A DNA stretch of 64,000 bases from Candidatus Gastranaerophilales bacterium (GCA_045598245.1 JAZLLQ010000020.1:13772-77771); one strand, 5' to 3'. Positions 4,609 to 62,200 are shown, numbered from the stretch's first letter. Numbers and translations: made by a program. Notes: generated from the letters alone by a model not told the origin.

Positions 4609-5031
4609 TTATTTTGTTGTTTCAAAAAATTTTCTTTTGAAGTAGTGAAAGAAATCGTTTTGACCTTTGATATTTCTGTGTTCGGTTTTAATTTTGTTAC
4701 CGTCTTTATCCGTAACAAATGTTTCAATAACAAGTCCCCTGTTACTTTTTCTTATGTGCATATCTTTATCGCTGCTTAGTGAATAATTAAGGGTAACCGT
4801 ATCGTAATGGTCGAGTTTATTCCATGCGTCACCATAGCAAATATTGTAAAGCGCTTCGTCATGAAATTTTTTGTAATTTTGCTTTTTATTGTGTTTGTTA
4901 TGTAGCCTTGTATGGTAGAAAGTTTCTGCCTTATCTAATTCCGTAAGGAATATTTCTTTAATTGTTTCGTGTGCGTTATCTGTTATTTTTAAACCGTTAA
5001 AATTAAGTGCGTTTGTTCTGTTTAATTCCAT
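4609..5031 (-). CDS. Hypothetical protein with N-terminal ...LNFNG motif
   Basis: 140-aa ORF, AAGGA-type RBS upstream of the ATG. Confidence 0.7.
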   Translation of the reverse strand: MELNRTNALNFNGLKITDNAHETIKEIFLTELDKAETFYHTRLHNKHNKKQNYKKFHDEALYNICYGDAWNKLDHYDTVTLNYSLSSDKDMHIRKSNRGLVIETFVTDKDGNKIKTEHRNIKGQNDFFHYFKRKFFETTK

Positions 5032-5202
5032 GCTATATCCTTTTTTACTTGTTTTTATAGAAAATTCAAAAATAAATAAAATTGACAGAGTAGAAATTTG
5101 AGTTCGGTTTGTGAGATTAATGATATACCTTGTAAATATTGCATTAAAAAATTTATATTGTATTATATCTGAGGAGTAAAATTTATACTGGAAATATAAA
5201 CT

Positions 5203-5724
5203 GTGACAATATCAAAAATCTTGGGAACTGCAATTACATCGTTAACATTGGCTATACCGACTGCAAAAGCAGAAAGTCAATTGGCAGGTGCTATAAGTAA
5301 TACAACGCTGCCTCAAAGAATTTCATCAGAAGGTTTAAAAATGACAGGTGATTCATTTGCACCTGCCGTTCAACAAGCTAAAAAAGTTATTATGGGCAAT
5401 GTTCAATCCGGAGGTGAAATTATTAATAACAATGGAGATGCAATAGGTAGCGGAATATTATTGCAAATTCATGGGACTGATTCTTTAGCAAATGAATTTA
5501 CGAAATTCCCAATAAAAACAGTGGAGTTAGATAACACAGTAACTAATGTTAAAAAAATTGTGATTGGTTCTCCTAAAATTACTGACAGTGTTGAATATAG
5601 TACTGAAATAACATACGGTGATAACCAAACAACAAATATTTTGGTTTCAGGTTTAGATAAAGCATATAAGTTTTTCAAAGCTAGATATGTCAATATCTTG
5701 GAAGATAACAGACTGTTGCGGTAA
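5203..5724 (+). CDS. Hypothetical exported protein
   Basis: 173-aa ORF with signal-peptide-like N-terminus (AKA-E cleavage-like site). Confidence 0.65.
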   Translation: MTISKILGTAITSLTLAIPTAKAESQLAGAISNTTLPQRISSEGLKMTGDSFAPAVQQAKKVIMGNVQSGGEIINNNGDAIGSGILLQIHGTDSLANEFTKFPIKTVELDNTVTNVKKIVIGSPKITDSVEYSTEITYGDNQTTNILVSGLDKAYKFFKARYVNILEDNRLLR

Positions 5725-6079
5725 TAAACTTTATTAGTCGTACAAAAAATGATAAAACAACAAAGAAGATATGAGAAAATCATATCTTCTTTGTTAGTAT
5801 TATAAATTTGTTTTAATTATAAAAATTAATTATGAAAAATGTTATTGAAAAAATTGCAAATGTTAAAAAAGTGAATATTTTTACCTCTAATAATACCCGA
5901 GTAGGTAATTGTGCAAGTATTCAAATGATGGTTATATATAAGTAATCTTTTTCATACTTCCAGCTATTCTTAATTCCAAACTATTTACGGGTCAAATTGA
6001 CCCGTTTTTTATTGCAAATGAAAAGCCGAGATATTATCTCGGCTTTTATATATTTTATTGAACTTTATTGTGATTGTTT

Positions 6080-6550
6080 CTAACCGAAGATGCTTCCGAT
6101 ATTTCCGAGAAGGCTGCCTGCACCGCCTAGTAAACCTGAACCCATAGAGAGTACGGTTTGAGGGCTGCTTACCATACTTACGAGCGAGTCGCCAAGTCCT
6201 AATAATGCTCTGTTACCAATTGAATTAAGTACTGTTTTTGTATTCAAATCTGCATATATATGTGTAGCACCTGAATCGTCCAATGCGTTGAATGTTTTGT
6301 TGCCCATTAACATTGTACTTGTTGTACAGCATCCGCCGCCGGTGTATATACCGCCACCGTATATTCCGCCACCCCAAAGGCTGCCGCCACCGCAACAAGT
6401 ACTTGTACTGATTACAGGTATTGCTGATGGTATTACTGATGAGCCTGAGCAGCTTGAAAATGTTCCGGGCATTACAGGTTTGTTGAATAAACCGTTATTT
6501 CCGACTGCCATAGCTAATTGCGCGTCATGATAATTCACAATTCCGTTCAT
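6080..6550 (-). CDS. Gly/Ser/Cys-rich hypothetical protein
   Basis: Start moved to the ATG at 6550 (GGAGG RBS); GGGIY repeats; inverted-repeat terminator downstream at about 6021-6048. Confidence 0.7.
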   Translation of the reverse strand: MNGIVNYHDAQLAMAVGNNGLFNKPVMPGTFSSCSGSSVIPSAIPVISTSTCCGGGSLWGGGIYGGGIYTGGGCCTTSTMLMGNKTFNALDDSGATHIYADLNTKTVLNSIGNRALLGLGDSLVSMVSSPQTVLSMGSGLLGGAGSLLGNIGSIFG

Positions 6551-6853
6551 AATAAAACCTCCGTCTCTATTTTTATTTCTTTCTCTTATATTATTAAAAA
6601 CATTTTGCTTAAAAAAATTGCCCAAATCAAATCGATAGTTCTGAAAAGCATATATAACAAGGGTTTTGGGAACTGTAAAAATGTTGCTTTTAGAAAATAA
6701 AGCATGCCGATAAAGAAAACTTAACACATGACTGTTGGCTAACTTGACATTGAGTTTTGACTGTTGATAATAATTATATGTGTCAGATTTTCCGGCATGA
6801 TTAATTTATGAAATTACAAATATGGACGCAATAAACGGCATAAGGAGGTATGT

Positions 6854-7228
6854 GTGCCTACATTAAATCAGTTGGTTCGCAAAGAAAGAACTAAATTAAA
6901 CAAAAAAACAAAATCACCGGCATTAACAAATTGTCCTCAAAGAAGAGGTGTTTGCACAAGGGTATATACAACTACACCGAAAAAACCTAACTCAGCTTTG
7001 AGAAAAGTTGCCAGAATCAGACTTACTAACGGCTTTGAAGTATCAAGTTATATTCCCGGTATTGGTCATAACTTGCAAGAGCACTCTGTTGTATTAATTA
7101 GAGGCGGCAGGGTAAAAGACCTTCCAGGTGTCAGATATCACATTATCAGAGGCACTTTGGATACACAAGGTGTTCAGAACAGAAATCAAGCAAGAAGTAA
7201 ATATGGTGCTAAGAAAGCTAAGAAATAG
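6854..7228 (+). CDS. rpsL: 30S ribosomal protein S12
   Basis: [25 protein letters not shown]. Confidence 0.99.
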
Positions 7229-60177: not shown

Positions 60178-60192
60178 TTTTGGAGTAAAATA

Positions 60193-60589
60193 GTGCTAAA
60201 TTCAATTCAAAAAAATCCTCTCAAACTTCTCTTTTCATTATAGTTATTGCAATTTTTACTTATTTTTTCCCTGATTTGTTTTTCTGGGTTCAGGTTGACA
60301 GTTAAACTATTATTTTGGGAATAATCATGCTTACAATGGGAATGACATTATCCGCGAAAGATTTTCAAATTTTATTTCAAAGACCATTTGATATTTTAGT
60401 CGGTACGTTGGCACAATATACATTGATGCCTTTAATTGCATTTAGTCTTATACATTTATTGCATTTGCCGCAATTCCCTAAGCTGCAATAATATCTGCAG
60501 TTTCGTGTGTATGGCATTCGATTTCCGGAACTTTACTTGCCGGAGTTTTTAATTGGAAAGATAAATTTATTAATAAATATAAAAAATAA
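60193..60589 (+). pseudogene. Bile acid:sodium symporter (BASS) pseudogene with frameshifts and a large internal deletion
   Basis: Fragments ILGIIMLTMGMTLSAKDF...GTLAQYTLMPLIAF and, in another frame, AAIISAVSCVWHSISGTLLA. Confidence 0.8.
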
Positions 60590-60657
60590 TAATAGATAAT
60601 AACAAATTATTTTTTTTGCTGTGTTAATATGAAAGTAATACTAAACCGGTATGTATA

Positions 60658-61062
60658 ATGAAAATAAATTCTGTTTCAAATCAAAATTTCGGAAGATGCA
60701 GGCTTGTTGATCCTTTACAAATGTACAAGCTGATTTCAAAGTCATTGCCAAAGCAAGATTTAGATGTATTTACCAGGGAAATTGACGGCTTGGTAAAATA
60801 TGTTCACGAAAGAACCCCGTTTTTATCTGGTTATGAAGTTCGTTTACATAATATACCTGACAGTAAATGCGGTTTAAATTTGCCGTCATATTTTATTGAA
60901 TTAGGGAAAAATGAACGCTTTTTATGTAGTGAAAATATTCCGTATAGACCTAATTCAATTCAAGGGAATGAACCGTTTAATTATGAAAAGTCATCTGAAC
61001 TTTTAGCCAGAGAAGTAAACAAATTAAAAGAAATGTTTTCGAAGAGTTTTTTAAATGATTGA
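60658..61062 (+). CDS. Hypothetical protein with N-terminal ...QNFG motif
   Basis: 134-aa ORF ending at a bidirectional hairpin (61090-61121). Confidence 0.65.
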   Translation: MKINSVSNQNFGRCRLVDPLQMYKLISKSLPKQDLDVFTREIDGLVKYVHERTPFLSGYEVRLHNIPDSKCGLNLPSYFIELGKNERFLCSENIPYRPNSIQGNEPFNYEKSSELLAREVNKLKEMFSKSFLND

Positions 61063-61171
61063 TTTTTTTAAACAATTATTAAAATAATAAAAAATCCCAA
61101 GTATTTATGCTTGGGATTTTTAGTATTGTTCTTAGTATTTAGATATCTGTCGGTAACTTTTATATTTTTGA

Positions 61172-62200
61172 CTAGGTTTCATCATCATCACCTGTATCTT
61201 TTTCAAGTGCTTTGTCTATTAATGTTGAAACTCTCTGACAGTACTCATTACCATCCCGATAATCGCTTAGTTTGGGCAATTCAATATTATATTCACGTAT
61301 ATATTTTAAATCTTCAGAAACACTTGCAATACTTTCATTATGAGCAGCTTCGCAAGCAAATTCAAAATTATCTTTATTTAAGCGGCTTAAAAATTGGTTA
61401 GCTGTTCCGCACGAAATTCTGCATAATCTTTCGGTAATGCCAGATATTTCTTCAACATTGTCAGGTGTCATTAATGATAGTAAATTTACCAAAGGTTTTA
61501 CCCCGTACATATCGTTATATTGTGCTACCAATGATTGAATATTCTCAAATACGGTTTTATTTTTATCCGCATAATTTAATTTTTCAACAAGTTTACTTCT
61601 GTGCTTAATTAAAGCAGGACATTTTGCAAAGTAACTTAGTAGGAATGAGAATTTTTCTCCTTTTGTATTTTTGTTGCCTGTCATATTTTTTTCGATGTAT
61701 GCTAAAACAGAATCGGAAAGTTTATCCGGTGTAAATAACTCCAATTCTTTTTGTGCATTATCAGAAACAGAACCACTCATATTATCAGCAACAAAGTATT
61801 GTATATCCTTTGATTTACCGCTTAATGCTTTAAAGTATGTTGTAATATTTTTAGCATCCATATCACTGACCTTGGATACTTCATTAGGGTCAGTTAAAAT
61901 TAATTTTAAAAGTTCTGATTTGCTTAATTTTGTTTTAAAACTTTTAATTGCTTGCATCATTTCCGTAATTTCATCTTTGGTGACAAAACGTATTCTTCCG
62001 TTTTCATTTTTTGCATCAAGCAGCATTTTTTTGCATTTTTGCTCTTCTGTTAACGGTTTATATGCCCCGAAACTCGGTATTTGCATGTTTTTTTGAATTT
62101 GTAAGTTTTGTTGATTTACGGTATTTTGAGATTTTGAATGTATGGCTCCTGATTTTGCGGTGCTTTCAAAGTTAATATTGTAGTTGTTTCCTATTTGCAT
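61172..62200 (-). CDS. Hypothetical protein with N-terminal ...INFES / PSFG motifs
   Basis: AAGGA RBS before the ATG at 62200. Confidence 0.75.
   Translation of the reverse strand: MQIGNNYNINFESTAKSGAIHSKSQNTVNQQNLQIQKNMQIPSFGAYKPLTEEQKCKKMLLDAKNENGRIRFVTKDEITEMMQAIKSFKTKLSKSELLKLILTDPNEVSKVSDMDAKNITTYFKALSGKSKDIQYFVADNMSGSVSDNAQKELELFTPDKLSDSVLAYIEKNMTGNKNTKGEKFSFLLSYFAKCPALIKHRSKLVEKLNYADKNKTVFENIQSLVAQYNDMYGVKPLVNLLSLMTPDNVEEISGITERLCRISCGTANQFLSRLNKDNFEFACEAAHNESIASVSEDLKYIREYNIELPKLSDYRDGNEYCQRVSTLIDKALEKDTGDDDET

Follow-up and report, generated by a model that had tools for sequence, protein, structure and literature searches.

A short N-terminal tag shared by unrelated, co-regulated proteins of Gastranaerophilales, a candidate signal for flagellar-type export

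Tagged proteins in the window and in the genome

The stretch of DNA analysed here, in the following called the window, comprises 64,000 nucleotides (nt) from Candidatus Gastranaerophilales bacterium (GCA_045598245.1 JAZLLQ010000020.1:13772-77771). It contains six genes whose products begin with a similar short peptide, here termed the tag, and continue as an ankyrin-repeat protein, a protein with an HExxH motif and orphan proteins (Table 1). A first-pass annotation of the window had quoted these six N-termini and all of them were reproduced by translation. Two of the positions given there, 4609 and 61172, mark where genes on the minus strand end; their start codons lie at 5031 and 62200. For the ankyrin protein a start at 46761 had been given; this first ATG reads MKLVFMRINF and the tag-like start is the second ATG at 46776, which we take as the start of the open reading frame because a promoter box (see below) sits 62 nt before it. 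The start codon at 53372 is a GTG with a weak ribosome-binding site. When scored with a hidden Markov model (HMM) of the tag, five of the six proteins reach 8.3–24.6 bits. The exception is the ankyrin protein, which has a weak long-form tag consisting of MRINFNSNLNF and of ANKLSFGW at about residue 50. In Pfam, ankyrin repeats were recognised in this protein and no family in the other five. A search of 5.8 billion proteins with the N-terminal 130 residues of the ankyrin protein found no homologue but only the protein itself, and the search with the protein encoded at 61172..62200 likewise returned only itself.

The window belongs to a 2.06-Mb assembly of 52 contigs with 33% G+C, one gene of which has its closest relative (96% identity) in a Candidatus Gastranaerophilales genome from horse faeces. 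In this assembly 1865 genes and their starts were called with a simple codon-usage model. The consensus of the tag is M-x-[IV]-[NSQ]-x-[IV]-x(3-6)-[NS]-F-[GSK]. Among the called genes, [NS]-F with the Phe at residue 11 is found in 31 proteins compared to about 12 at the neighbouring positions, and MQINKISTSQNFG, MKINSVSNQNFG and MQVSNINSLNFG are typical starts of this family. Nearly all tags have I or V at positions 3 and 6, the residues after the Phe are small (G, S, A), and residues 2–12 of the tagged proteins show a surplus of N, Q, S and I and a shortage of D, L, A and E. Both halves of the tag tend to occur together: the Phe-Gly element follows 24% of the M-x-[IVL]-x-x-[IVLTMP] starts and 7% of the rest. 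A long form, in which the Phe element lies at residues 25–70, is weakly enriched (16/233 vs 56/1632, p = 0.017).

The HMM was seeded with 32 N-termini from the whole genome and used to scan 40,909 start-codon-anchored open 24-mers in six frames. It gave 38 matches of at least 14 bits compared to one in shuffled sequences, and nearly all of them lie exactly on predicted ATG gene starts; the motif thus occurs at gene starts far beyond chance. At a threshold of 8 bits, 77 of the 1865 gene N-termini are matched vs 5.4 in shuffles, and we estimate that there are 70–80 true members, about 4% of the genes. The shared N-terminal tag is confirmed as real and belongs to a much larger set than first reported. 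None of the curated models in Pfam and NCBIfam covers the tag region of the six window proteins or of the three top-scoring tags, and neither the tag nor the promoter box is described in the literature that we searched.

The bodies of the tagged proteins are unrelated, as had been noticed for the six: after removal of the first 25 residues, 51 of 62 were singletons in an all-against-all BLASTP comparison. The only real paralogue family among them are calcium-binding giants beginning with MEINK, one of which is a borderline member in the window. The domains recognised on tagged bodies are a metallophosphatase/5′-nucleotidase, a GNAT acetyltransferase, an HD domain, the ankyrin repeats of two proteins, an NTP transferase, an amidohydrolase, a class II aldolase, a class I/II aminotransferase and an AAA ATPase. 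The glycolytic enzymes TpiA, Gap and Pgk of this genome carry no tag. With a median length of 154 amino acids (aa) vs 259, and with a transmembrane-like segment in only 2 of 77, the tagged proteins are small and soluble. A Sec-like hydrophobic core is present in none of the 77 tagged proteins but in 355 of all 1865 proteins (19%), which bears out the claim that a Sec signal is missing; of the features of Tat and lipoprotein signals, the tag consensus contains neither an RR pair nor a Cys. The tag therefore marks a large set, far larger than six, of unrelated, non-Sec and mostly orphan proteins. Their genes are clustered on the chromosome, with nine adjacent pairs vs 3.1 expected. One string consists of three genes whose products are all tagged, a small orphan, a 5′-nucleotidase-like enzyme and a protein of 433–436 aa without known function; its order and content are kept in another genus and a single box stands before its first gene.

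The promoter box and selection on the tag

Upstream of the tagged genes the 7-mer TAGCAAA is enriched (18/61 vs 47/1015, p = 2e-9). It is part of a promoter box which consists of TAGCAAA, a T-rich spacer and a TTTAATAT-like −10 element and is located 50–65 nt before the start codon. A 36-nt position weight matrix (PWM) of this box was cross-validated by splitting the tagged genes into two halves, one for training and one for testing; at a threshold of 15.1, 34 of the 77 tagged genes pass vs 35 of 1745 others (p = 1e-31). Most of these 35 genes have tag-like starts which escaped the HMM, among them the ankyrin protein of the window. In the window four genes are at or above the threshold (46776, 53372, 57277 and 60658), and about half of the tagged genes of the genome are missing a recognisable box. 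Counted over the whole window, the bare 7-mer is no more frequent than expected; its significance lies in position and context. Similar elements are found in other genera: a three-gene tagged operon orthologous to the one described here is preceded by cGCAAA, a T run and ttatat, 55 nt upstream, and an orthologue with 38% identity in another genus has TGGCAAA, a T-rich spacer and tgatac. A sigma-54 promoter was rejected by eye, as there is no GG/GC pair at the right spacing.

The genome contains about 20 sigma-28-type promoters, which stand before flagellins, before the calcium-binding giants of the MEINK family and before proteins as large as 4696 and 1604 aa. The sequence TAAAG-N14-GCCGATA was found upstream of 3 of 62 tagged genes, all of them MEINK giants. 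For the giant in the window the sigma-28-type promoter TAAAGATATATTAAAAAAAACCGATA lies 39 nt upstream, and its promoter-box score is −3.8. We had considered that the tagged proteins are late cargo of the flagellar regulon, and this was rejected, sigma-28 promoters being found only at the MEINK giants. Taken together, the sequences suggest that the tagged genes form a co-regulated set with a dedicated promoter class which is distinct from sigma-28. One of the window flagellins with a sigma-28-type promoter is a giant of 1066 aa. The genome has seven flagellin paralogues on contigs C20, C29, C37 and C40; three of them have the ordinary size of 279–286 aa, and three giants, which contain large inserts in their centre, reach 649, 874 and 1066 aa.

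The highest box score of the genome belongs to the gene of a 352-aa protein on contig C11 which has a long tag-like N-terminus. In a scan of its first 90 residues this protein gave a weak match to sigma-70 region 1.2, and it is a candidate for an autoregulated sigma factor of the tagged genes.

As box, fixed distance of 50–65 nt, strong ribosome-binding site and tag travel together, and as the tagged genes cluster, it could be argued that the tag is no signal at all and that promoter, leader and first codons are a cassette which duplication or recombination has spread or which is retained because translation starts efficiently from it. We consider this highly improbable. About half of the tagged genes have no recognisable box, and tagged genes inside operons have retained the tag where no box precedes them. 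In addition, an A/T-rich start leaves the invariant Phe-Gly at residues 11–13 unexplained. Further counter-evidence comes from a tagged 566-aa 5′-nucleotidase-like protein, for which 107 homologues with 29–58% identity were found. Nearly every full-length homologue has the tag at its start, directly before the first beta-strand, and between the two halves of the tag both length and sequence are variable. In an alignment of 78 homologues the Phe of the tag is one of 27 invariant columns, beside the catalytic Asp, His and Asn, and it is retained down to 29% identity. On the DNA level, the codons used for the conserved Ile, Asn, Phe and Gly match genome-wide usage, and the synonymous variants AAT/AAC and TTT/TTC occur in tags across genomes. 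Since the Phe is invariant, the codons follow genome usage and synonymous variants occur, selection acts on the tag as protein and not as DNA.

AlphaFold2 with the alignment of the 5′-nucleotidase-like protein predicted a confident two-domain fold (predicted local distance difference test, pLDDT, 91.6). Residues 1–13 were modelled as coil, with a mean pLDDT of 49 for residues 1–10, and the tag is thus modelled as a disordered extension of this fold. The nearest solved structures are CD73, snake-venom 5′-nucleotidase, NadN, UshA and SoxB. All of these are extracytoplasmic and made with signal peptides, and here the tag occupies the place of the signal peptide.

Distribution of the tag and two flagellar-type export cores

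The first-pass annotation had also supposed that the peptide is lineage-wide, and the counts in related genomes agree with this. At E <= 10 the HMM gave 32 matches in the genome analysed here, 21 in each of two genomes of the same genus, 10–13 in two other genera of the same family and 1–9 in other families of the order. In a class-wide sample (E <= 0.05), 118 of about 190 Gastranaerophilales genomes had the tag, compared to 1 of about 210 from other Vampirovibrionia orders. These class-wide counts were obtained through a first-look filter of varying sensitivity and are lower bounds, because the large search is less sensitive than a small one. A back-translated DNA pattern was tried as a class-wide probe and gave 10 matches vs 1 control in this genome; it was replaced by the HMM search because it is too insensitive in other genomes. 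The tag is thus order-specific, occurring across Gastranaerophilales and being practically absent from the sister orders.

The genome encodes two complete flagellar-type type III cores (FliOPQR, FlhA, FlhB, FliH, FliI, FliF, FliE, rod proteins and a FliN-like protein), which we call set 1 and set 2 (Table 1). The genes of set 2 are scattered in this genome and form one operon, flgF2-G2-B2-C2-x-fliE2-F2-x-fliH2-flhA2-fliI2, in relatives. A search of genome contigs with the single FlhA2 sequence gave only 11 loci, the flanks of which are nearly free of tagged genes. Beside the fliI2 gene there is a gene for a soluble paralogue of FlhA with 485 aa, which combines a new N-terminal part with positions 321–655 of the FHIPEP (FlhA) family (E = 1.5e-46). 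This soluble FlhA C-domain paralogue could be an adaptor for the export gate.

Searches with FHIPEP gave matches in essentially all Gastranaerophilales. FlhA1 and FlhA2 reach Pfam FHIPEP scores of 890 and 710 bits, respectively, and this difference reproduces two E-value classes across the order. With the score classes calibrated in this way, canonical FlhA is present in 49 of about 190 genomes of the order (26%), while the others carry the second type alone. It thus appears that about three quarters of the order keep no export core but the second-type one. The estimate of 26% agrees with a 2026 preprint according to which about 25% of the Gastranaerophilales have complete flagellar gene sets; the others are stated there to keep flhB, fliI, flgG etc., which were postulated to serve secretion. 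The tag was found in 29 of the 49 genomes with canonical FlhA (59%) and in about 89 of the about 142 genomes which appear to lack it (about 63%). As these frequencies are similar, the tag is independent of a complete flagellum. In two relatives (L004:12972-19683 and L005:12818-19493) cheA, cheY-like and cheW-like genes lie directly downstream of the second-type flhA. Therefore, the second core may still serve a motility apparatus in some members.

Some resemblance was found between one half of the tag, the second, and the signals of early flagellar substrates. In Salmonella the rod and hook subunits have small non-polar residues near the N-terminus and a gate-recognition motif (FLTLL in FlgD) which docks on FlhB (PMC8983047, eLife 2022). 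At least 19 residues separate both signals in the early subunits, 24–30 being the optimum, and shortened variants stall at FlhB (PMC8983047). All rod and basal-body proteins found in the genome analysed here have a Phe motif at residues 40–54, for example, DDISFSGLM in FlgC2, KITSFSQTM in FliE2, RDVSFNQIL in FlgB2 and KSITFAAMY in FlgC1; its form in the rod proteins is [IV]-S-F-x-x-x-hydrophobic. With a matrix derived from the second half of the tag, ten rod and basal-body proteins score above the proteome background within residues 30–65 (Mann-Whitney p = 3e-4). The proteins of set 2 match best, with FlgC2 (top 1%) and FliE2 (top 2%) in front, and the flagellins gave no match. Within the tags, the residue four positions after the Phe is hydrophobic in 19 of 33 cases vs 34% in the background (p = 0.005, uncorrected).

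Alternatively, the tag could be the leader of a different route that is specific for Gastranaerophilales and unrelated to flagellar-type machines, such as a dedicated transporter, or a leader peptidase with its cleavage site behind F-G or F-x-G. The order-specific distribution of the tag would fit well, whereas FlhA homologues span most of the class. Like cleaved leaders the tag has a defined sequence, its Phe is followed by small residues (G, S, A), and the type III genes lack the box. We nevertheless regard such a route as unlikely, though as an alternative to be reckoned with. No candidate machine was found for it, and the motif contains neither the Gly-Gly of peptidase-C39 substrates nor twin arginines (Tat), a lipobox or a hydrophobic core; a double-glycine leader was rejected by eye, there being no GG site. 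Moreover, the likeness of the second half of the tag to the gate-recognition motif of the lineage's own rod proteins would be left without a place in this explanation.

Table 1. Location of tagged genes, promoter boxes, export core genes and other features. Positions without a contig or genome prefix are those of the window.
Feature	Location	Strand	Remarks
Tagged orphan, 140 aa, MELNRTNALNFNG	4609..5031	−	Tag HMM 17.2 bits; no Pfam family
Ankyrin-repeat protein, 651 aa from this ATG	46776..48731	+	Tag HMM <5 bits; ankyrin Pfam families
Tagged protein, 229 aa, MKISSLQVHNASFSG, HELSH (HExxH) motif	53372..54061	+	Tag HMM 14.7 bits; GTG start; no Pfam/NCBIfam family
Tagged orphan, 180 aa, MKVNNIKNISFKA	57277..57819	+	Tag HMM 17.3 bits; no Pfam/NCBIfam family
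Tagged orphan, 134 aa, MKINSVSNQNFG	60658..61062	+	Tag HMM 24.6 bits, among the best tag matches of the genome
Tagged orphan, 342 aa, MQIGNNYNINFES	61172..62200	−	Tag HMM 8.3 bits; second element QIPSFGA at about residue 45
Borderline member, calcium-binding giant, 862 aa, MEINKIAFENL...ISQSFEELD	50138..52726	−	Tag HMM 13.7 bits; paralogous family
Weak box variant TGTCAAT, T-rich spacer, tataaa	5081..5087	−	56 nt before start 5031; PWM 6.7, below threshold
Box TAGCAAA	46714..46720	+	62 nt before ATG 46776; PWM 27.3
Box variant TGGCAAA	53314..53320	+	58 nt before GTG 53372; PWM 27.9
Box variant TGGCAAA	57218..57224	+	59 nt before ATG 57277; PWM 15.0, at threshold
Box TAACAAA	60600..60606	+	58 nt before ATG 60658; PWM 23.2
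Box TAGCAAA	62257..62263	−	63 nt before start 62200; PWM 9.7, below threshold
Genes of the window preceded by sigma-28-type promoters	27156-28007, 34463-37663, 14641-17256, 44092-45645, 50138-52726	− (all)	Two flagellins and three non-flagellins
tRNA gene	45931-46004	+	Sole Rfam match within the window
Three-gene string, all products tagged	C41:81052-84767		L013:9488-13047 in a relative
Candidate sigma factor, 352 aa	C11:78639-79697		N-terminus MLTINTNY...DSVSFSG
Set 1: fliP, fliQ, fliR, flhB, flhA	C9:10810-15883		
Set 1: flgB, flgC, fliE, fliF, fliG, fliH, fliI	C37		
Set 2: FlhA2, FliH2	C29:13273-15967		FlhA2 37% identical to FlhA1
Set 2: FliN-like protein, FliO2, FliP2, FliQ2, FliR2	C47:2803-6627		
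Set 2: FlhB2	C14:51475-53234		Adjoins a sigma factor gene
Set 2: FliI2	C37		Adjoins the soluble FlhA C-domain paralogue
Soluble FlhA C-domain paralogue, 485 aa	C37:12776-14233		
Core-gene regions on contig C37	C37:12776-16162 and 116002-122291		
Set 2: FlgF2, FlgG2, FlgB2, FlgC2, FliE2, FliF2	C11:62976-68285		

Possible meaning of the tag and comparison with known systems

We conclude that the tag is a lineage-specific N-terminal address tag on a co-regulated set of about 80–110 soluble, non-Sec proteins, which are probably exported. That the tag means export, and which machine reads it, we infer from several lines of evidence. Export is the best-supported meaning because the tag takes the N-terminal position in an enzyme family with extracytoplasmic relatives, because its composition is type III-like and one of its halves is similar to the rod motif, and because a box together with an N-terminal signal is a combination known from type III effector regulons. 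A flagellar-type route, in a modified form, is the best candidate, since the second core seems to be kept order-wide and one half of the tag resembles the gate-recognition motif of the rod proteins. We regard it as quite possible, though still short of probable, that a flagellar-type type III gate reads the tag as an export signal.

If so, the following mode of export can be imagined. The flexible extreme N-terminus M-x-I-x-x-I would act as a small hydrophobic signal, and [NS]-F-[GSK]-x-x-hydrophobic would be the gate-recognition motif. It would dock on the cytoplasmic domain of an FlhB protein, probably that of the second, order-wide conserved core. The cargo would be unfolded and then passed through the FliPQR/FlhAB gate, and its expression would be coordinated by the dedicated promoter with TAGCAAA, T-rich spacer and −10-like element. 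In the most specific version, which we regard as rather doubtful, the second core is a general secretion system, the consensus M-x-I-x-x-I...[NS]-F-G is a compacted form of the rod gate-recognition signal, and the regulon is defined by its promoter and maybe driven by the tagged sigma-70-family protein.

Several observations speak against an export through a flagellar-type gate. The sister orders of Vampirovibrionia have FlhA homologues and yet no detectable tag. The canonical tagged genes are outside the sigma-28 regulon, and the type III genes of both sets are without the box. Type III signals are normally degenerate and the tag is a conserved motif, the two elements of which are, in the compact form, 4–8 residues apart and not at least 19 as in the early substrates of Salmonella. 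The folds of the tagged class I/II aminotransferase, class II aldolase, NTP transferase, AAA ATPase and amidohydrolase are of cytoplasmic type, and the probable sigma-70-family protein is tagged as well. Finally, the link between FHIPEP class and loss of the flagellum is drawn from score classes.

Some of these observations would be more easily understood if the tag acted inside the cell, as a docking tag or a degron which brings the co-regulated proteins to a cytoplasmic hub, scaffold or protease and so controls their location or lifetime. In a variant of this idea, cleavage before the invariant Phe exposes an N-end-rule residue for ClpS. The many cytoplasm-type enzymes would fit, and so would the probable sigma-70-family protein with its tag and the best box of the genome, the spacing which is too compact for the Salmonella rule, and the type III genes that are not co-regulated with the tagged genes. 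A conserved short motif with an invariant Phe is also typical of a specific receptor or protease site. The tag is comparable to the encapsulation peptides of microcompartments and to the cargo-loading peptides of encapsulins, which are short and flexible terminal peptides on unrelated enzymes and lie outside the fold. Unlike for encapsulation peptides, no homologue of a shell protein was found; this was a weak test, made by tblastn with a PduA sequence, and the best E-value was 2.7. As the spacing of the hydrophobic residues of the tag varies, no fixed amphipathic helix is conserved. No candidate for a hub or an adaptor was identified. Furthermore, the best-characterised tagged family has the 5′-nucleotidase fold, with solved relatives that are all extracytoplasmic, and ankyrin repeats as well as fast-evolving orphans without homologues fit better to secreted effectors. 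On balance, we consider an intracellular docking tag or degron rather unlikely, yet a serious rival to export.

Gastranaerophilales are gut relatives of cyanobacteria which are widespread in the guts of humans and animals and have never been cultured. Why most members retain some flagellar components but no complete flagellum is a puzzle. Tag and box together yield a testable list of candidate cargo, about 80–110 proteins per genome, with ankyrin-repeat proteins, the 5′-nucleotidase-like enzyme, acetyltransferases and many orphans. If type III secretion is true, the tag would be the first address label of a type III route that is defined by its sequence, and the list would comprise about 100 secreted proteins per genome. 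A real consensus motif would be unusual for a type III signal; it would help to explain how the gate recognises its substrates and might be put to use as a short tag for secretion. Otherwise, the tag would point to an undescribed sorting or turnover system that covers about 4% of the proteome.

Compared to the early substrates of Salmonella, the tag has the same order of elements, small aliphatic residues at positions 3–7 and then a Phe-centred motif, and the tagged proteins likewise appear to be unchaperoned and soluble. Unlike these substrates the tagged cargo is non-flagellar, its motif is much more sharply conserved and it has its own promoter outside the sigma-28 hierarchy.

A second comparison is offered by the hrp-box regulon of HrpL in Pseudomonas syringae, whose type III substrates follow three rules: the first 50 residues contain more than 10% Ser, position 3 or 4 is aliphatic or Pro, and the first 12 residues are free of acidic ones (PMC3338616). 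Taken singly, the rules apply to 35% (Ser), 97% (I, L, V or P at position 3 or 4) and 71% (no acidic residue) of the tagged proteins. All three apply to 30% of the tagged and 2% of the other proteins; as position 3 is already set by the tag model, this comparison is in part circular. As in the HrpL regulon, the tagged proteins are dispersed, unrelated, fast-evolving and often orphans, and a special promoter is combined with an N-terminus that is aliphatic at position 3 or 4, rich in polar residues and poor in acidic ones (PMC3338616). In contrast to the HrpL regulon, in which the N-termini share a bias in composition, the tagged proteins have a true consensus motif, and no injectisome, needle or translocon genes were identified in this genome. 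The organism also differs, being an uncultured gut commensal.

Non-flagellar proteins are also secreted via the flagellar type III apparatus, namely Cia, Fed and FspA in Campylobacter jejuni and YplA in Yersinia. The tagged proteins resemble them in being soluble and devoid of a Sec signal, and the only recognisable type III machinery in this genome is flagellar-type. The substrates in C. jejuni and Yersinia are few and not known to share a consensus tag, whereas here a tag is present on about 4% of the proteome. Co-expression with flagellar genes is common among the Campylobacter substrates; this does not apply to the tagged genes, the canonical ones being outside the sigma-28 regulon. In non-motile symbionts, flagellar basal bodies are retained as presumed secretion devices. 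The Gastranaerophilales would be similar to these symbionts, as the export core seems to be kept in those members whose full flagellum was probably lost.

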